This document shows, piece by piece, positions 3 to 10,017 of a DNA stretch of 10,314 bases. The position numbers and the translations under genes are program-made. The stretch's first letter is position 1. Each line of letters opens with the position of its first letter. The stretch comes from a virus (taxonomy: Duplodnaviria > Heunggongvirae > Uroviricota > Caudoviricetes). Under the pieces are notes generated by a model. It was not told where the DNA came from. It saw only the letters and a list, made by a program, of their open reading frames with translations, and ran no database searches. Where the stretch lies: positions 1-10,314 of the IMG/VR virus record IMGVR_UViG_3300010282_000006; one strand, 5' to 3'.

Positions 3-78
3 TCCTCCTTAGCTCAGTCGGTAGAGCACGCGGCTGTTAACCGCGGTGTCGTTGGTTCGAGTCCAACAGGGGGAGCCA
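3..78 (+). tRNA. tRNA-Asn (GTT)
   Basis: Cloverleaf read directly: acceptor TCCTCCT/AGGGGGA, D-arm GCTC/GAGC, anticodon stem CGCGG/CCGCG with loop CT-GTT-AA, TTCGAGT T-loop, encoded CCA at 76-78. Confidence 0.97.
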
Positions 79-83
79 AAGAG

Positions 84-120
84 CAGCGCCGCCACGAAGG
101 TGGCGGCGCTGTTTCCATTT
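84..120 (+). terminator. GC-rich hairpin between tRNAs; possible weak intrinsic terminator or processing signal
   Basis: Perfect 12-bp stem CAGCGCCGCCAC (84-95)/GTGGCGGCGCTG (100-111), GAAG loop, followed by an interrupted U-tract TTTCCATTT. Confidence 0.5.
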
Positions 121-137
121 AGGGAACATGAATACAT

Positions 138-214
138 GGGCCTTTAGCTCAGTCGGTCAGAGCAGCCGGCTCATAACCGGTCGGTCCTGGGTTCGAGTCC
201 CCGAAGGCCCACCA
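138..214 (+). tRNA. tRNA with CAT anticodon, most likely tRNA-Ile2 (lysidine-modified) rather than tRNA-Met
   Basis: Acceptor GGGCCTT/AAGGCCC, anticodon loop CT-CAT-AA, encoded CCA. C4:G69 and C5:G68 pairs and the CTCATAA loop match bacterial tRNA-Ile2 features (established knowledge). The Ile2 versus Met call is inference. Confidence 0.9.
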
Positions 215-215
215 T

Positions 216-291
216 AGGGGTATAGCTCAGCTGGTAGAGCAGCGGTCTCCAAAACCGCGTGTCGAGAGTTCGAATCTTTCTGCCCCTGCCA
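216..291 (+). tRNA. tRNA-Trp (CCA); probable integration target
   Basis: Acceptor AGGGGTA/TGCCCCT, anticodon stem GCGGT/ACCGC with loop CT-CCA-AA, TTCGAAT T-loop, encoded CCA end. The gene is intact. Confidence 0.96.
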
Positions 292-365: not shown

Positions 366-428
366 CATCTAACACACATGCCTCAGCATCTAACATTCAT
401 CTAACACTTTTCAAACACATCATCTAAC
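366..428. repeat. Four direct repeats of CATCTAAC; probable integrase arm-type binding sites
   Basis: Copies start at 366, 387, 398 and 421 (the first three continue with A), with spacings of 21, 11 and 23 bp, between the tRNA and the end of the integrase gene. Confidence 0.75.
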
Positions 429-1570
429 GCAGCCGCCATTTCGACCTTGGAAGTCTTCACGGCATGACCGTAAAACTTGAGCGTCGTGTTGGGACTTTCG
501 TGTCCGAGCCATTCCGCAACCTGGGATACATTGAATCCCATTTCCAAAAGATTCGTCGCGGCGCTGTGTCTGAGATCGTGGAGACGAACCTGCGGAAGCG
601 TGCTCTTTGTGATCGTCTTGTGAAATGTCTTTGTGAGGTAATTCGGTGTGATGACTCTGCCGTCTGGCCAGGTGCAAAGGAAGTTGCTCTCGATGTAGTA
701 GTCTCCCATGATCCGCTTGCGCTCGTCCTGCAGATCGCCCTGGTGTTTTATCAGTTCGTAGATGCTATCAGGCATGGGGAGCGTTCTCATACTGCTGTCC
801 GTCTTTGTTTCGTCTTCGTAGTCTCCGCCAACGCCCTGCTGCAATGTGTTTTCCACGGTGATCGTGCGGCGCTGGAAGTCGATTGCGTCCCATTTGAGGC
901 CGAGGACTTCACTTCTGCGGAATCCATAGAAAGCAGTCAGTCTAACCGGAAGCTCCACGACAGATCCATTGAAAAGCACCAGAAGCTCGTCGATTTCCTT
1001 CGTGTTCAGAAACTCAGGTTTGAACTTCCTTACCTTCGTTTCCGGCTTTGGCATATCAACCGCCGTTGCCGGATTGAGGGGTATCAGATGATCGTGAACC
1101 GCATCTGACAATGCCTTGCTGATGTTCTGCTGATGGTGTTTTACGGTTGTCGGCGACAGAGCTTCGCCAGTTTTGAGCTTGCTACCTCTTTTGAGCTTTG
1201 CTTTGAAGTATGCTTCGAGATCTTGCGTTGTGAGCGCTTGCAGTGGGATGTTTTTCGCCTTGAAGTATGGAATTATGTGGTTTTGCATATTCCCCTCGTA
1301 GTTGCGATAGGTGTTTTGCCTGACCTCTTTCTTGATCTTCACCAGCCAAAGCTCAAAGTATTCCGCGACGGTAATGTCGTTTTGCGGAACGACCATTCCG
1401 TTCAGCTCGATCAACTTCTCCTGCAAGAACCGCTCTGCAGCCTTCTTGTTGCCTCGAATCGGTAGCTCTGTACTGATCCACTTCTGTCTCCGTTTTCCGT
1501 TTTCGTCTTTTAGGTTGAGAACGACGTGGAATTTGCCGTTCTTGATTTGCAAGTTGCCTGTGACCGCCAT
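401..1570 (-). CDS. int: Tyrosine recombinase/integrase (phage/ICE type, 389 aa)
   Basis: Catalytic residues present: R (GFRRSE), K (ETKT), HxxR (HDLRH), H (LGH), Y (FYGH). N-terminal arm-binding-like segment (KFHVVLNLKDENGKRRQKW) and a core-binding middle domain. RBS AAGGAGG upstream. Confidence 0.96.
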   Translation of the reverse strand: MAVTGNLQIKNGKFHVVLNLKDENGKRRQKWISTELPIRGNKKAAERFLQEKLIELNGMVVPQNDITVAEYFELWLVKIKKEVRQNTYRNYEGNMQNHIIPYFKAKNIPLQALTTQDLEAYFKAKLKRGSKLKTGEALSPTTVKHHQQNISKALSDAVHDHLIPLNPATAVDMPKPETKVRKFKPEFLNTKEIDELLVLFNGSVVELPVRLTAFYGFRRSEVLGLKWDAIDFQRRTITVENTLQQGVGGDYEDETKTDSSMRTLPMPDSIYELIKHQGDLQDERKRIMGDYYIESNFLCTWPDGRVITPNYLTKTFHKTITKSTLPQVRLHDLRHSAATNLLEMGFNVSQVAEWLGHESPNTTLKFYGHAVKTSKVEMAAALDDVFEKC

Positions 1571-2814: not shown

Positions 2815-3351
2815 TCAAACGCTTGCCTTTTCATATTCTTCGTTCGCAATGTCGCACTCGTAACATTTTTGCGAATAGGCGTCGTTGCAATATGATCCTC
2901 CGTCAAATGGGCAGAAAGGCTCCTTGTTTTCGGCGGGTCTATCCAGAAACTCCGCGATCCACTCCCTTTTTGAGTTGTCGTGGATATTTCCGATGATGGT
3001 CAGGCCGAAAGATGTGTCGATGAGCATAGGCACATATCCTCTTACTGCACTCATTTTTTGCGGGAGAAGATAGAACGCGCCGCAAATCCGCTTGACCTCA
3101 TAAACCGCTTCGTTGCGGTCACGCACAATGTCGCCGTCATAGATTTCTGCCTTGCTAATGTCGCAGCAGCCAGAATACTCGCCGACGGTCTTCGGATCGA
3201 CCTGAATCCAATCGCTTGTGTACGGTTGTCTGCCGTTGATCCAACATGTTCCGATCCAGTCGACTGATTTTGGGCGATTCAGCCCATCGCCGATTATCCA
3301 CTCGCCATTGTCGAGCCGCTTACCGCGAAATTTGATTTGGTCGAGTACCAT
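2815..3351 (-). CDS. YopX family protein (178 aa)
   Basis: Signature IKFRGKR.DNGEW..G, TVGEYSG..D....IYDGDIV and IIGNIHDN. Start reassigned to ATG 3351 with RBS GGAGAGGT. Confidence 0.88.
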   Translation of the reverse strand: MVLDQIKFRGKRLDNGEWIIGDGLNRPKSVDWIGTCWINGRQPYTSDWIQVDPKTVGEYSGCCDISKAEIYDGDIVRDRNEAVYEVKRICGAFYLLPQKMSAVRGYVPMLIDTSFGLTIIGNIHDNSKREWIAEFLDRPAENKEPFCPFDGGSYCNDAYSQKCYECDIANEEYEKASV

Positions 3352-3368
3352 TATTACCTCTCCTTGTA

Positions 3369-3509
3369 TCATGTGGTTCGTCGAACGCTCTGTTTTGCGT
3401 TTTTTATAGCGATTATCTCTGCAAAAATGATTCCGTTTTCTGTTGATACGCTCGTAATGAGTAATTTGATGGGTAAAATTTTGTTGACGAAACAAGCCGA
3501 GTTATTCAG
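3369..3509 (-). CDS. Possible small ORF (46 aa) with CTG or degraded start
   Basis: Fills the gap between two coupled genes. GAGGAAG precedes CTG AAT AAC, which overlaps the upstream stop. No homology recognised. Confidence 0.25.
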   Translation of the reverse strand: MNNSACFVNKILPIKLLITSVSTENGIIFAEIIAIKNAKQSVRRTT

Positions 3510-3813
3510 ACGCTTCCTCAATCGTTTCTTTTCCTGCCTGATTTTGCTCCATTGCTGCTTTAACAATCATGTCGTAGCTTTGCGGATATGTGTAGAAAAA
3601 TTCGCTGTGGCTGCCAACGTCGAATTTCGTCATCGGGCGACCATTCCAATCTTCGTTCCAGACGCGCGTGTAGAAGATTTTGAAATGACGCTCATCACAG
3701 AAAGAGCGGATCTGATTGAAGATTTCATCGACGATCTTTTTGGCAGGCATTCTTCCGTCGATTTTGCCGATTCGACGGAGCTGACCAAGCCCGTTTTTGA
3801 AGTAAAGGATCAT
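3502..3813 (-). CDS. Hypothetical phage-type protein (103 aa)
   Basis: ATGA overlap with the upstream gene, RBS GGAGAGGG. Motif FKIFYTRVW...FDVGSHSEFF resembles small phage proteins (from recall only). Confidence 0.75.
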   Translation of the reverse strand: MILYFKNGLGQLRRIGKIDGRMPAKKIVDEIFNQIRSFCDERHFKIFYTRVWNEDWNGRPMTKFDVGSHSEFFYTYPQSYDMIVKAAMEQNQAGKETIEEASE

Positions 3814-4004
3814 GTGACGCCCTCTCCCTCCTTCGGGAAGAAGTCGCGGATTTTCTGCATTGCCGCGTCATCTTCCATATAGAACGGATCGCGGTCGCCG
3901 AAAATGTTGACAATAAGCTGTCCGAAGCGCCAGTCGGGACATTCAATTTCCCAGATACTTGCAAGCTCTTCACAAAACTTGCGGATTCTGTTTGGATCTC
4001 TCAT
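3810..4004 (-). CDS. Small phage-type protein (64 aa, MRDPNRI...PDWRFGQL; possibly DUF1040-like)
   Basis: ATGA overlaps at both ends, RBS AAAGGAG. The family assignment is tentative. Confidence 0.75.
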   Translation of the reverse strand: MRDPNRIRKFCEELASIWEIECPDWRFGQLIVNIFGDRDPFYMEDDAAMQKIRDFFPKEGEGVT

Positions 4005-4445
4005 ATTGCTCCTTTCTCGTGAAATATCACTACCATACTTGGGAATGGCGCGGAGTTCTTTCCGTCTCCGAATTTCAGCCGTCCACGCACAAAGCGCACC
4101 TCGACGTTCGGCTTGTTGTAGATGTAGTCGTGGAAGTAACTCGTGTCTGTTCGAGCCGGTATCAGCATGACTACCGTGGTGTTAGGCTTGCAGGATTCTT
4201 CGGAGCTTTTCTTTACCCAATCCTTAATTGCTCTGCCGTATGGCGGATTGCAGAAGACCGTATGCCCCCCCCCACGACTGTTCAAGTCCATTTTGCTCCT
4301 CCGTATAATAGCGGTCGCATTTGTGATTGGACTTGTCCGCGCAGGGATCGAGGGTAAAGTGAAACTCCGAATCCAGTTCGTCGAAGAAATTCTGCGGGGT
4401 AGCCCACTCGTTTGACTTCGACGAAAACATGACATCCAGATTCAT
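4001..4445 (-). pseudogene. Phage-type DNA N6-adenine methyltransferase (Dam family, PF05869-like), frameshifted at a G9 tract; 147 aa if G8
   Basis: ATG 4445 (RBS GAGGTG) gives MNLDVMFSSKSNEWATPQ...FTLDPCA...QSWGG, then goes out of frame and stops at 4224. The other frame continues GGHTVFCNPPYG...LIPARTDT...GRLKF...APFPS to 4001. The break is exactly at C9 (4265-4273 on +). Deleting one base gives a 444-nt ORF. Confidence 0.9.
4265..4273 (-). repeat. G9 homopolymer tract inside the methyltransferase gene
   Basis: Nine consecutive C on + (4265-4273). The - strand reads TGG GGG GGG G CAT ACG. Confidence 0.95.
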
Positions 4446-4464
4446 AGGTTCACCTCGTAATATT

Positions 4465-4941
4465 TTAGATTTTCCAGATTTCGACGTTTCCGGGATAGCG
4501 TGCAAGCGCGTCGGCAACCATCGGTAGCACGATCTTCCATTCGCCGCCTCCGAGCGCACAGCCGAACATCCACGGGAAACCGAGTGAAAAGCTGTTTTCG
4601 CATAGGAATTTGTTGTTTGCAAGGCTTGTAAGCGCACGCTCCAGCGCAGCATAGTCGGTTTGCTGCTTGCCGCGCCCATAGTGCTCTTGCCCGAAAAGAT
4701 TTGCGACAATGCGAGTTTTGCCCTCGTCTGTGTAGACAAGCTGGCAGGAACCGAGTGGAGATTTGCCCTGCAATCGCTTGCCCTCGCAGAAGAGCTTGTA
4801 CTGCTCAAAGACGCGGGGATATTCACGCCGGATCTGTTTTGCTATCCCCGCGCCCATAACGCCCTGACAGTTGACTTGATGGCAGATCACATCAACCTTG
4901 GAATCAAAGAGCAGATTGCCGTCATAGACTTTGATAGTCAC
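4465..4941 (-). CDS. Macrodomain protein (ADP-ribose binding/processing, 158 aa)
   Basis: GNLL...ICHQVNCQGVMGAGIAKQI N-terminal macro motif and FGCALGGGEW diphosphate-binding loop. ATGA overlap with the upstream gene. Confidence 0.9.
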   Translation of the reverse strand: MTIKVYDGNLLFDSKVDVICHQVNCQGVMGAGIAKQIRREYPRVFEQYKLFCEGKRLQGKSPLGSCQLVYTDEGKTRIVANLFGQEHYGRGKQQTDYAALERALTSLANNKFLCENSFSLGFPWMFGCALGGGEWKIVLPMVADALARYPGNVEIWKI

Positions 4942-6862: not shown

Positions 6863-7237
6863 TCACTCCTTTTGCGGACGCTTATGATAACGCTTTACGC
6901 GGACAAGCAGTTTGTACTTTTGAGCTGTTTCGATCATGTTTTTCGTGCCTCGGCTCACGCCGTCCCAAAACGCGACAAGCGCATCGGCATTTTGTGCCAT
7001 CTCCTCATTACGAACGATGCCGGCGCGTCGACCGAGACGATCCCAGTCAGCAGGGAAGTAATGCACCTTGTAGCTGTGCTCCTTGGCGTATCGCTCGCCG
7101 AGCGTATCTGCCCCGCGTGCTTTTCCGCAGACAATGACGATTTCATCATTGACGTTGGAAAGCAAATAGTCCACTGCTTTTTCAAGCGCTTCGTAATTGT
7201 CGAAATCGCGTCCACCGGCGATAATCAGGCGAAACAT
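6863..7237 (-). CDS. SLOG superfamily protein, YspA-like / DUF2493 (124 aa)
   Basis: LIIAGGRDF, IVCGKARGAD, ADW...G..AG..RNEEMA, LVAFWDG.SRGT..MI motifs. Start reassigned to ATG 7237 with RBS AAAGGAGG. Confidence 0.9.
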   Translation of the reverse strand: MFRLIIAGGRDFDNYEALEKAVDYLLSNVNDEIVIVCGKARGADTLGERYAKEHSYKVHYFPADWDRLGRRAGIVRNEEMAQNADALVAFWDGVSRGTKNMIETAQKYKLLVRVKRYHKRPQKE

Positions 7238-7248
7238 GATAACCTCCT

Positions 7249-7587
7249 TTACTCCTGTGCGCCTGTTTTGATGAGGTCTCCTTCCCAAAACGACCAGTTA
7301 CAGCCGTCCAAATCGAAAATGACGGGGTATCCTGCTTCACTGCTGTGGCGAAGCCGCGCTACAAACTCCTTGTCTGCGTTCTGTTCGACAAAATCGCGGT
7401 ACTCAGACTGCAACCGTTCCCATTCCTTGCGAGATCTGATTCGCTCCACGTTGATTTTTACGGTGTCTCCGTCGTTGATCGGATTCTCGGTGTTATGCGC
7501 GGCGTCTTCGATCAGACGCCTCAAGGCATCTGTGTCTTTTGTGGTGCGCAGGCGGTGCTCCAGTGAGCGCCTTTGTTGTCTGTTCAT
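7249..7587 (-). CDS. Hypothetical protein (112 aa)
   Basis: Start reassigned to MNRQQRR (ATG 7587, RBS GGAGG). The C-terminal part (DGDTVKI ... VIFDLDGCNWSFWEGDL) looks like a small beta domain. Confidence 0.75.
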   Translation of the reverse strand: MNRQQRRSLEHRLRTTKDTDALRRLIEDAAHNTENPINDGDTVKINVERIRSRKEWERLQSEYRDFVEQNADKEFVARLRHSSEAGYPVIFDLDGCNWSFWEGDLIKTGAQE

Positions 7588-7600
7588 CGGGAAAACCTCC

Positions 7601-7804
7601 TTACACAACGATTCTGCTGATACGCGGCGCTTCGTCCGCAGGGACGAGCGGCGTTATTTCTATAACCGCCCGATCCATTTCCATCGTTCCTTCGATGATT
7701 TCCTCTTCTTTGCCAAGACCGAGTAGTTTACGGCGTGTGGTCTTGTTTGTGATAACAACCTTGTAAGTGCCATCTTCGTTTTGTGTTGCGATGATCGTCT
7801 TCAT
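7601..7804 (-). CDS. Hypothetical protein (67 aa)
   Basis: Co-directional, fills the gap between neighbours, RBS GAGGAG upstream. Confidence 0.7.
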   Translation of the reverse strand: MKTIIATQNEDGTYKVVITNKTTRRKLLGLGKEEEIIEGTMEMDRAVIEITPLVPADEAPRISRIVV

Positions 7805-7819
7805 AGATTATTGTGCTCC

Positions 7820-8623
7820 TCAAATGCGCTTATTGATGTACTCACGATCCTGCGAGAAAATAGGGATTTCATGGTCAATCTCCCATATGCGGCGATCAAC
7901 GGCAATCAACTCGCCCGGATGACGCGGATCATCCATTTCAAGCCTAAGCGATTGCTTGACACAACATGAACCACGTTTGCAGTCAGTTGGAAAATCGTTC
8001 CAGTTGATGTTCTTTTCGGTGAAGAGCATATCCTGAATCTCATTGCAGCTTTTACCGTGAAGCTGGCGCTGACTGAAATTAGCCTGCCCGACCGCCTCGA
8101 TGCTGTTGCGCGTTGCGTCCTGCTGACGCCAGATCAGGCAGTTTGCTACGTCACTTTGCGGAACAGAGAAAGCGCGTGCGTCAAAGAGTGCCGAATTAAC
8201 CTTATCTTTATATCTGAAGAACTCTTCACCTGATACGGCTTCCGGACTCGTAATGACTCTAAAATACGCATCGTTGAACGCAAGCGTCGCCATTGACGCT
8301 GCAATGCTGGTCATCTTTTGAACATTGTACCCAAACCACGCATCTGTTGTGATAGTCGCATAGTCTGTCAGTATGAGTGAAATTTCATCTGACTGTGTGT
8401 ATCCGAGCACACAGCCCTGAATCTCTTCACACAGCGTTTTCATCGTGAGCTGCATGGCCTCCATCAAAACGGGGTCAAACGGCTTTTTCATTCCGCGCGT
8501 GAAAGTATGAAATGCTTTGCCGTCTAAGCGGATAATGGCGGGGATTCGGCGCGTCAGGTAGTTCTTCGGCACGGACTCGTACTGTTTCATACGATCGCCG
8601 AGACTGTCGGTTTTCTTACTCAT
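7820..8623 (-). CDS. thg1: Thg1-like protein (tRNA-His guanylyltransferase / 3'-5' nucleotidyltransferase family, 267 aa)
   Basis: LGDRMKQYE N-terminus, IIRLDGKAFHTFT (first catalytic Asp), GYTQSDEISL (second catalytic Asp), FDARAF, WRQQDA.RNSI. Start reassigned to ATG 8623 with RBS GGAGGAG. Confidence 0.93.
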   Translation of the reverse strand: MSKKTDSLGDRMKQYESVPKNYLTRRIPAIIRLDGKAFHTFTRGMKKPFDPVLMEAMQLTMKTLCEEIQGCVLGYTQSDEISLILTDYATITTDAWFGYNVQKMTSIAASMATLAFNDAYFRVITSPEAVSGEEFFRYKDKVNSALFDARAFSVPQSDVANCLIWRQQDATRNSIEAVGQANFSQRQLHGKSCNEIQDMLFTEKNINWNDFPTDCKRGSCCVKQSLRLEMDDPRHPGELIAVDRRIWEIDHEIPIFSQDREYINKRI

Positions 8624-8717
8624 TATCGCTCTCCTCCCAAGGAATTTTGATCGCGTGGCGGACGCCATCCATCTCGCATAGCAAGCGCCATCTTCCGTCA
8701 GTGCGTTTTGCCGTCAT
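8616..8717 (-). CDS. Possible 33-aa ORF bridging glyA and thg1 (MTAKRTDGRWRLLCEMDGVRHAIKIPWEESDNE)
   Basis: Read by hand: ATG 8717 inside the glyA 3' end after a purine-rich AGGAAGGAAAGTGA, with TAA at 8616 just inside thg1. Confidence 0.3.
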   Translation of the reverse strand: MTAKRTDGRWRLLCEMDGVRHAIKIPWEESDNE

Positions 8718-9936
8718 CCGATTCACTTTCCTTCCTCCTTTTCATTTGCTTGATGATGCGGTCGATCTCACGCGCAACCATTACAAAATCTTCCTCCATA
8801 TAGCCCCTAGTTGTCATTGCCGCTGTGCCAATCCGAATGCCGGACGTGAGCTGCGGCGAACGGGTTTCATTTGGAATACAGTTTTTGTTCACCGAAATAC
8901 CGCTCTGATCCAAGCATTCCTGAACTTCCTTACCGGTCAGTCCAGTCTTGGTGAGGTCGATCAGGAACAGATGGTTGTCTGTTCCTCCGGTCACAACATC
9001 ATATCCGAGACGAATGAACTCGTCGCACATAGCACGGCTGTTCCGAACGACTTGATGAATGTAGGATTTGAACTGATCCGTGCAAGCCTCTTCCGCTGTG
9101 ACCGCTTTCCCGGCGATGACGTGCTGCAAAGCGCCTCCCTGCGTACACGGAAATACAGCACTGTCAATCTTCTTGGCAAGTTCCGGCTTGCAGAAAATCA
9201 GACCGCCTCTTGTGCCACGCAAAGTCTTGTGCGTGGTTGTAGTAATTACGTCCGCAAGTCCAAACGGTGAAGGATGATCACCAGCAACGACCAAACCAGC
9301 AATATGGGACATATCCACCATAAAATACGGACGCTGTAAAGTCGTATAACTATAGCATGAATAATAACTGTCAATGATCTTGTTAATCCGGCGAAAATCA
9401 ATAATACGACTGTACGCGCTTGCTCCGGCAAGAACCAACTTTGGATGATATTCGTGCAATTTGCGGTATAAATCGTCGTAGTCGATCCAACCATCAGCAT
9501 CCACGCCGTAAAACTTTACGTTGAACAGTCTTCCGCTGAAATTGACCGGCGAACCGTGCGTAAGATGTCCGCCATCGTTGAGGCGCATGGAAAGGATCGT
9601 GTCGCCGACATTCAGGAGCGCCATATACGCCGCAAGATTCGCGGACGATCCGCTGTGCGGCTGAACGTTGACGTGGTAATCTGTGTTGAATACCTCCCGC
9701 CACTTTTGGCAGCAATATTCCTCCAACGTGTCTATGTACTGACAGCCGCCATAATACCTTCCACGGTTTCCAGTCTTTCGATATTCAGGATAGCCCTCGG
9801 AGTATTTGTTGGTCAGGCATGATCCGACTGCCTTCATAACGTTTTCGCTGACAAAGTTCTCGCTGGCAATCAACTCAATCGTGTTGCATTGGCGATTGCG
9901 TTCTCTTTCGATCATCTCAAAAACTTTTGATTCCAT
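8698..9936 (-). CDS. glyA: Serine hydroxymethyltransferase (412 aa)
   Basis: ELIASEN, NKYSEGYP...RYYGG, NVQPHSGS..N, GGHLTHG, TTTTHKTLRG (PLP lysine), GGTDNHL, VNKN.IP, SGIRIGT. Start probably ATG 9936 (MESKVF). Confidence 0.97.
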   Translation of the reverse strand: MESKVFEMIERERNRQCNTIELIASENFVSENVMKAVGSCLTNKYSEGYPEYRKTGNRGRYYGGCQYIDTLEEYCCQKWREVFNTDYHVNVQPHSGSSANLAAYMALLNVGDTILSMRLNDGGHLTHGSPVNFSGRLFNVKFYGVDADGWIDYDDLYRKLHEYHPKLVLAGASAYSRIIDFRRINKIIDSYYSCYSYTTLQRPYFMVDMSHIAGLVVAGDHPSPFGLADVITTTTHKTLRGTRGGLIFCKPELAKKIDSAVFPCTQGGALQHVIAGKAVTAEEACTDQFKSYIHQVVRNSRAMCDEFIRLGYDVVTGGTDNHLFLIDLTKTGLTGKEVQECLDQSGISVNKNCIPNETRSPQLTSGIRIGTAAMTTRGYMEEDFVMVAREIDRIIKQMKRRKESESDDGKTH

Positions 9937-10017
9937 GATGTATCCGTCGCCTCCATGCTTTGCGTAATAGTCACACAATGCGCATCTGAAAATAAATTAT
10001 TGTCGAGCTATAACTAA

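Follow-up and report, generated by a model that had tools for sequence, protein, structure and literature searches.

Does one extra guanine in a phage DNA methyltransferase gene mark a decayed gene, a sequencing error or a gene that has been switched off? The question is raised by a locus in the first 10.3 kb (10,314 nt, the whole stretch analysed here, called the window below) of a 115,129-bp provirus record from IMG/VR, estimated to be 89% complete. A gene of the phage Dam family in this window is interrupted at a run of nine guanines (G9), and the initial annotation, made from the letters of the window, proposed that this element-borne adenine methyltransferase is phase variable, being ON with eight guanines (G8) and OFF with nine. 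The features of the locus are collected in Table 1.

Table 1 Features of the methyltransferase locus and its surroundings. Positions refer to the window unless stated otherwise; G000 is the whole provirus record.
Feature	Position	Strand	Basis and remarks
N6-adenine methyltransferase gene, PF05869 (phage Dam)	4001..4445	-	Three-frame translation; 147 aa with the tract as G8
Poly-G tract (G9), W-G-G codons	4265..4273 (plus-strand C9)	-	Sequence; G9 = OFF, G8 = ON
Product of the G9 allele, 73 aa	4224..4445	-	57 native codons and W-G-G, followed by 13 codons out of frame up to the stop at 4226-4224
C-terminal two thirds of the enzyme, out of frame in the record	4001..4264	-	Frame B translation; TGA at 4003-4001
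Motif IV, N-P-P-Y	4249-4238	-	In frame B, downstream of the tract
F-T-L-D-P-C-A segment with family-invariant Asp D33	4338..4358	-	D33 invariant in 19 homologues
RBS GAGGTG	4451..4456	-	Sequence; 5 nt ahead of the methyltransferase ATG at 4445
Next ORF, 64 aa, without family match	3810..4004	-	ATG at 4004-4002 overlaps the methyltransferase TGA as ATGA
Macro-domain / phrog_335 'phosphatase' gene	4465..4941	-	Pfam, PHROGs; upstream, co-directional, operon-like run
Integrase	401-1570	-	
Three tRNA genes (Asn-GTT, Met-CAT, Trp-CCA)	3-291	+	At the provirus end, beside the integrase
SLOG/YspA-like protein	6863-7288		Co-directional run 6863-9978
Thg1-like 3'-5' nucleotidyltransferase	7820-8668		Co-directional run 6863-9978
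Serine hydroxymethyltransferase, full-length	8698-9978		PF00464, E 7e-145
Five other G/C runs of 8-9 nt	G000 26867-29717 (L046 2868-5718), outside the window		DPPY amino-methyltransferase and split C5-cytosine methyltransferase

When the tract is read as G8, the methyltransferase frame runs through 147 codons free of other stops. This read-through product matches the Pfam family PF05869 with an E-value of 2.3e-31 and 109.2 bits (cut-off 28.1), residues 10-140 aligning with positions 8-143 of the 169 in the profile, and it matches phrog_111 at 4.6e-59. It contains the N-P-P-Y motif and all residues that are invariant in 19 homologues, among them W14, T16, P17, D33, W58, N66-G70, R98, T101, H105, D106, G121, and R122; the F-T-L-D-P-C-A segment has a putative role in SAM binding. 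These matches indicate a member of PF05869 by descent that is predicted to be non-functional as sequenced, its frame being broken by G9. The gene had been described from the outset as having a good ribosome-binding site, a single break and an ATGA overlap with the following gene, and three-frame translation and sequence agree with this description in all checkable details. We also considered dual coding by a 144-aa ATG ORF in the NPPY frame (4001-4435) and rejected it, as this frame is open by chance: other G9 copies do not conserve the ORF, and upstream of the tract they keep the frame open for only 6-59 codons, and for 6 codons in five of them.

The gene belongs to a long co-directional run of small, closely packed genes beside the integrase. 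Other neighbours encode YopX, a GIY-YIG endonuclease, a SLOG/YspA protein, a Thg1-like protein, and serine hydroxymethyltransferase. None of the neighbours is recognised by Pfam or PHROGs as a restriction partner (res, hsd, endonuclease, or specificity subunit), and the term orphan, given to the methyltransferase from sequence inspection, thus holds as far as these two resources tell. The ATGA overlap is not conserved in the nucleotide alignment of relatives and is local to this phage; translation of the next ORF may be coupled to the ON frame, and the OFF state may lower it here, not generally. Promoter-like and terminator-like matches between 3400 and 7400 are no more numerous than in shuffled sequence. 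A scan of GTDB species representatives for the host finds no relative above 70% identity, the best matches being Clostridia MAGs.

Some further features of the surroundings deserve mention in their own right. The tRNA genes at the provirus end may represent the host attachment region or phage-borne tRNAs. At its 3' end, the YopX-domain ORF shares ~90 nt with the ORF that resembles a GIY-YIG endonuclease (ORFs 2271-2906 and 2815-3495), and the latter may be a homing endonuclease insertion. The run with the SLOG/YspA, Thg1-like, and serine hydroxymethyltransferase genes is unusual auxiliary cargo for a phage. Several tetranucleotides are strongly avoided in this record (CTAG, 10 vs 84 expected; GGCC, 156 vs 384) and in two of the related phage records, since CTAG is absent from the whole of G001 and G003, and G003 also has few ACGT (38 vs 187 expected) and GATC (285 vs 451), all of which is consistent with past restriction pressure. 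GATC, a guessed target of the methyltransferase, occurs 703 times in the present record against 777 expected, a mild deficit that is uninformative.

To locate the tract in the protein, we used an AlphaFold2 model of L002, a G8 homologue with 92% identity, built with 19 homologues. The model shows a single α/β class-I methyltransferase domain (pLDDT 81, pTM 0.80). By sequence, the PDB gives no match for the methyltransferase. By structure, the top solved match in Foldseek is CAPAM/PCIF1, an adenosine N6-methyltransferase with an NPPF motif (E 5.7e-5, TM 0.59-0.63), and the further matches are other class-I SAM methyltransferases, including E. coli Dam and DpnM, with weak scores. The tract corresponds to residues 58-60, i.e. 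the invariant Trp and a loop whose sequence and length vary in the family, and this loop directly precedes the strand (residues 62-65) that ends in NPPY. According to the model, in-frame length changes at the tract should be tolerated, while any frameshift would remove five of the seven core elements, and for this reason the position suits a switch. The tract had been thought to separate a SAM-binding half from a catalytic half; this division finds no counterpart in the model, in which both halves build one Rossmann-like domain, and the N-terminal fragment is predicted to be just a non-functional stub.

We then compared the tract among related copies. Viral contigs were searched with the peptide as seed and also scanned by pattern, and metagenome contigs were scanned with a tract-blind pattern. 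The peptide-seeded search returned 37 loci, and in all 14 with at least 81% identity these same codons hold the tract, its length being G7, G8, G9, or G10. Farther homologues mostly have mixed codons, even if one at 68% identity also has the tract. In the tract-blind scan, the tract is present in 37 of 50 relatives, and the 13 matches that lack it, with codons such as GGT AAT, fall into other subclades. Homologues in cultured phages, with up to 75% identity, are all intact: the one in a Geobacillus phage contains no more than an in-frame G7 (GGG GGC), and those of Lactococcus and Parabacteroides phages have no tract.

Among 65 non-duplicate phage and metagenome copies, G9 is the most frequent length (30 copies), followed by G8 (17), G7 (10), and G10 (8), so that 26% of the copies are in frame (ON) and 74%, or 48 copies, are OFF. 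This share of ON copies is about what drift among four lengths would give, and it is from sequence conservation, not from the state frequencies, that selection for the ON state is suggested. The nucleotide alignment of close relatives shows the tract as the sole indel of the coding region. Copies that are otherwise indistinguishable differ in it: six of the 12 groups with 100% identical 420-nt flanks hold differing lengths, e.g. 7/7/8/9 and 8/9/9/9. A maximum-likelihood tree of 30 copies, made with the tract columns removed, requires no fewer than 11 changes of length and no fewer than 5 of ON/OFF state, compared to 13.5 changes on average when the length labels are shuffled, and tract length is therefore almost free of phylogenetic signal. 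Every sublineage contains both ON and OFF copies, intermingled. The survey of homologues for tract polymorphism that was suggested along with the switch thus gives a clear outcome, with lengths from G7 to G10 that arose by repeated, independent changes.

Three homologues stand apart. In L099 and L110 (IMG/VR 3300029305_011225 and 3300032167_002744), the Dam frame extends upstream through 229 codons free of stops and reaches a metallophosphatase-like ORF, which is either a fusion or just a missing stop between two genes. L033 (2001-2400) contains a tract-less homologue of 62% identity, broken in its matched range by a frameshift and four stops, which looks like a genuine pseudogene, unlike the tract-bearing copies.

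Setting the tract to eight guanines turns every copy into an intact gene of 141-152 aa. The dN/dS ratio is ~0.09 for the N-terminal half and ~0.03 for the C-terminal half, with the same values for OFF-OFF pairs, which suggests strong purifying selection on both halves, OFF copies included. GGG is the rarest Gly codon elsewhere in the gene (3/156, 2%), and both tract codons are GGG in all tract-bearing copies despite saturated synonymous sites. This codon usage points to selection as what keeps the tract; whether homologues have GGG rather than mixed Gly codons had been named as a check at the outset, and GGG GGG is indeed what they keep.

The rest of the genome shows a similar signature. G/C homopolymers in the 115-kb record number 19 at length 5, none at lengths 6-7, and six at lengths 8-9, while A/T runs fall off smoothly with length. 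The same gap is seen when five relatives are added, with no G/C runs of length 6, 0-2 of length 7, and 2-10 of lengths 8-10. Under an order-1 Markov model, 0.64 G/C runs of at least 8 nt are expected in this record vs the six seen (P ~5.5e-5), and all six sit in DNA methyltransferase genes, which make up 3.2% of the genome (P ~1e-9). The tract of the DPPY amino-methyltransferase is also G9 and thus OFF, G8 being in frame, and the C5-cytosine methyltransferase locus that holds G/C runs is split and multi-modular.

The behaviour of these tracts is best seen in G001 (126 kb, with terminal repeats, complete) and G002, which align over 75.6 kb at 99.7-99.97% identity and come from the samples 3300021311 and 3300021318, probably of one study. 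All seven indels of this span are at poly-G/C tracts, including the Dam tract (G8 vs G7); seven of the 10 G/C tracts differ between the two genomes, whereas the 16 A/T runs of 7-8 nt are all unchanged, in a census that covers this one pair, G003, G004, and G005 being too divergent genome-wide. In the methyltransferase cluster of G001 (95900-99100), six of nine tracts differ in length from those of G002, the identity being otherwise 99.97%. Tracts of 8-9 nt also occur in other genes of the relatives. A PP-loop gene that resembles PAPS reductase, next to the methyltransferase cluster, holds one of them and is in frame in G003 (42455) but shifted in G005 (42374); the others are in genes for a 95-aa zinc-ribbon protein, a ClpP-like protease, and a second N6/N4 methyltransferase (G003 24028 / G005 59232; G004 53255; G005 22032).

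These observations have to be weighed against other readings of the locus. A simple pseudogene, i.e. one +1 frameshift followed by decay, would fit a gene that as sequenced cannot give a full-length protein and a family in which most natural copies (74%) are out of frame. Nevertheless, no further stop or indel occurs in any of the 48 out-of-frame copies, the dN/dS ratio downstream of the tract stays at ~0.03 even between OFF copies, and differing lengths between identical flanks, as well as the interleaving of ON and OFF copies in every sublineage, do not go along with a single loss. We regard decay as highly improbable, and the test proposed for it, namely whether homologues lack length variation, came out on the side of switching. 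The initial annotation also held a homopolymer error of sequencing or assembly to be a serious alternative, the gene being truly G8 everywhere and the other lengths artefacts. Sequencing is known to be prone to error on long G runs, 2-3x contigs account for some of the G7 and G10 copies, and the G9 of this record could itself be a consensus error, as the comparison was made with assembled contigs at depth 2-5: the public runs were taken as assembled Logan contigs (best share 0.37), and in consensus contigs on the window two of these runs give G9 and one gives G8. Near 4233, one run has a unitig break, which is due to the conserved NPPY region, shared with other phages, and not to the tract. 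Yet errors around a true G8 should peak at eight, whereas the modal length is the out-of-frame G9 (30/65), which is also called on Illumina contigs assembled by SPAdes at 11.5x, 19.5x, and 28.5x coverage, and all four lengths are found on contigs of 70-180 kb as well. Error would have to spare every A/T run of 7-8 nt while changing most G/C tracts between genomes that are 99.97% identical, and it cannot account for a tract conserved against codon usage or for the confinement of long G/C runs to methyltransferase genes. This alternative is thus disfavoured, and we consider it very unlikely.

The remaining alternative accepts the tract as real and sees G9 as a low-level ON state, reached by RNA polymerase slippage or +1 ribosomal frameshifting, with the tract length setting the level of expression. 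Bacterial transcription is known to slip on long homopolymers, and G9 as the modal state would make sense if it were not null. However, G7, G8, and G10 are all frequent and no single length is preserved, and the short alternative frame upstream of the tract, closed after 6 codons in five G9 copies, leaves no conserved second frame. Whereas programmed frameshifting or slippage goes with a fixed slippery sequence of conserved length, lengths here range from G7 to G10 and 26% of the copies need no shift at all. A modal G9 is also expected from a mutational bias of the Campylobacter type: Bayliss and colleagues reportedly found in 2012 that such a bias gives modal G9 in Campylobacter poly-G tracts. 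The excess of G9 fits this bias, and it could also reflect an advantage of the OFF state in the prophage, or leakiness of G9. On balance, we think it unlikely that G9 is a low-level ON state.

We therefore favour a phage orphan N6-adenine methyltransferase controlled by a slipped-strand contingency tract, with G8 ON and G9 OFF at this locus, as the probable explanation. The element-borne, phase-variable methyltransferase originally proposed thereby gains support from the tracts of homologues, from the length changes, and from OFF copies free of lesions. The locus combines what is expected of a contingency locus, i.e. an intragenic tract of at least 7 nt beyond what composition gives, lengths that differ in near-identical genomes, and homoplasy. 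That the tract changes by slippage, that it does so reversibly in real time, that the enzyme is active on a target, and why the switch would be adaptive are matters of inference.

In the mechanism that we propose, the poly-G run would gain or lose a base during phage or prophage replication, at a rate far above that of base substitution. G8, and presumably G11 too, would give the full enzyme, while G7, G9, and G10 would give a truncated product of 70-90 aa without most of the Rossmann fold, so that a phage population would always mix methylating and non-methylating variants. With the five further tracts in other DNA methyltransferase genes, methylation patterns would be mixed as well. The most likely benefit would be bet-hedging between hosts that cut unmethylated DNA (restriction-modification) and hosts that cut methylated DNA (Type IV nucleases), a rationale that is best supported by analogy with agt of phage T2. 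Altered gene expression in the lysogen, as might be suggested by the prophage methyltransferase PamA, would be a second possible effect.

Taken further, six independent poly-G/C switches, all in DNA methyltransferase genes, might form a combinatorial methylome that is heritable yet reversible (up to 2^6 states), in other words a phage-borne, multi-locus 'phasevarion', with which a single lysogen would release progeny pre-adapted to varied restriction-modification or methyl-dependent defences, and which could reprogramme gene expression of the lysogen. We put this forward tentatively, as a plausible extension that is somewhat less likely to hold than to fail. The word phasevarion would also need a wider sense than membership in a Type I or III restriction-modification system, given that the present gene encodes a small orphan enzyme with macro-domain, YopX, SLOG, Thg1-like, and unknown ORFs as neighbours.

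For a single gene the gain is incremental, and the added value lies in the Dam tract completing a set of six switches, all methyltransferases, in one phage. If the interpretation is right, phage contingency loci extend to the methyltransferases of temperate gut phages, and uncultured temperate phages of gut anaerobes would routinely hedge their own epigenetic identity, which bears on how phages cross the host barriers set by restriction systems. Metagenomic annotation should then treat 'frameshifted' phage methyltransferases as switches rather than as pseudogenes or errors. The linking of phages to hosts by methylation would be affected too, because methylation motifs would be unstable markers.

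The type of switch is already known, from poly-G methyltransferases in bacteria, from poly-G tracts in Campylobacter phages and in a Bordetella phage methylase, and from loci of T-even phages. Bacterial examples are the Type IIG methyltransferase cj0031 of Campylobacter jejuni (PMC4889913) and the Type III mod 'phasevarions' of Haemophilus, Neisseria, and Moraxella (PMC6902483, PMC13076061). As in the present gene, an intragenic run of ~8-10 G sets the frame of an adenine methyltransferase, near-identical genomes vary in it, and ON and OFF states coexist in nature. The bacterial systems differ in being chromosomal Type I, IIG, or III systems of mucosal pathogens, whereas the present gene encodes an orphan PF05869 enzyme of 147 aa, with no recognised restriction partner, in a temperate phage of gut anaerobes.

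Among phages, contingency loci have so far been shown experimentally in T-even phages (agt, rIIA) and in Campylobacter phages (receptor-binding proteins) (bioRxiv 10.1101/2025.10.21.683753). In T2 and T4, an A-run in the DNA-modification gene agt acts as such a locus, and for T2 agt, bet-hedging between defences against modified and unmodified DNA was shown by experiment (bioRxiv 10.1101/2025.10.21.683753). A phage DNA-modification gene is switched there by reversible frameshifts in a mononucleotide run, the same logic as we propose here. Nevertheless, T2 is a virulent coliphage with an A run of 6-9 in a glucosyltransferase gene and measured reversion rates, while our case is a G run in a methyltransferase gene of an uncultured temperate phage, with comparative evidence.

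Hypermutable poly-G tracts are likewise attributed to the Campylobacter Fletchervirus phages (Sorensen et al. 2021, Cell Rep 35:109214, cited in PMC12823448 and bioRxiv 10.1101/2025.10.21.683753), where, as cited, several G7-G11 tracts per phage genome make phenotypic subpopulations. Those tracts are described as lying in receptor-binding proteins and changing the host range via adsorption, whereas those of the present phage lie in DNA methyltransferase genes. PamA, a Dam-like prophage methyltransferase of Staphylococcus aureus that changes expression of the host gene fnbA (Ulrich et al. 2025, summarised in PMC13076061), is comparable as an orphan adenine methyltransferase carried by a prophage and offers a precedent for an epigenetic effect on the lysogen; unlike the present gene, it is not reported in that summary to be phase variable. 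Comparable, too, is the Bordetella phage BPP-1, which carries a diversity-generating retroelement; according to Liu et al. 2004 (J Bacteriol 186:1503), as cited in bioRxiv 10.1101/2025.10.21.683753, it has a poly-G tract in its methylase gene, and it shares with the phage studied here a poly-G run within a methylase gene of a temperate phage.
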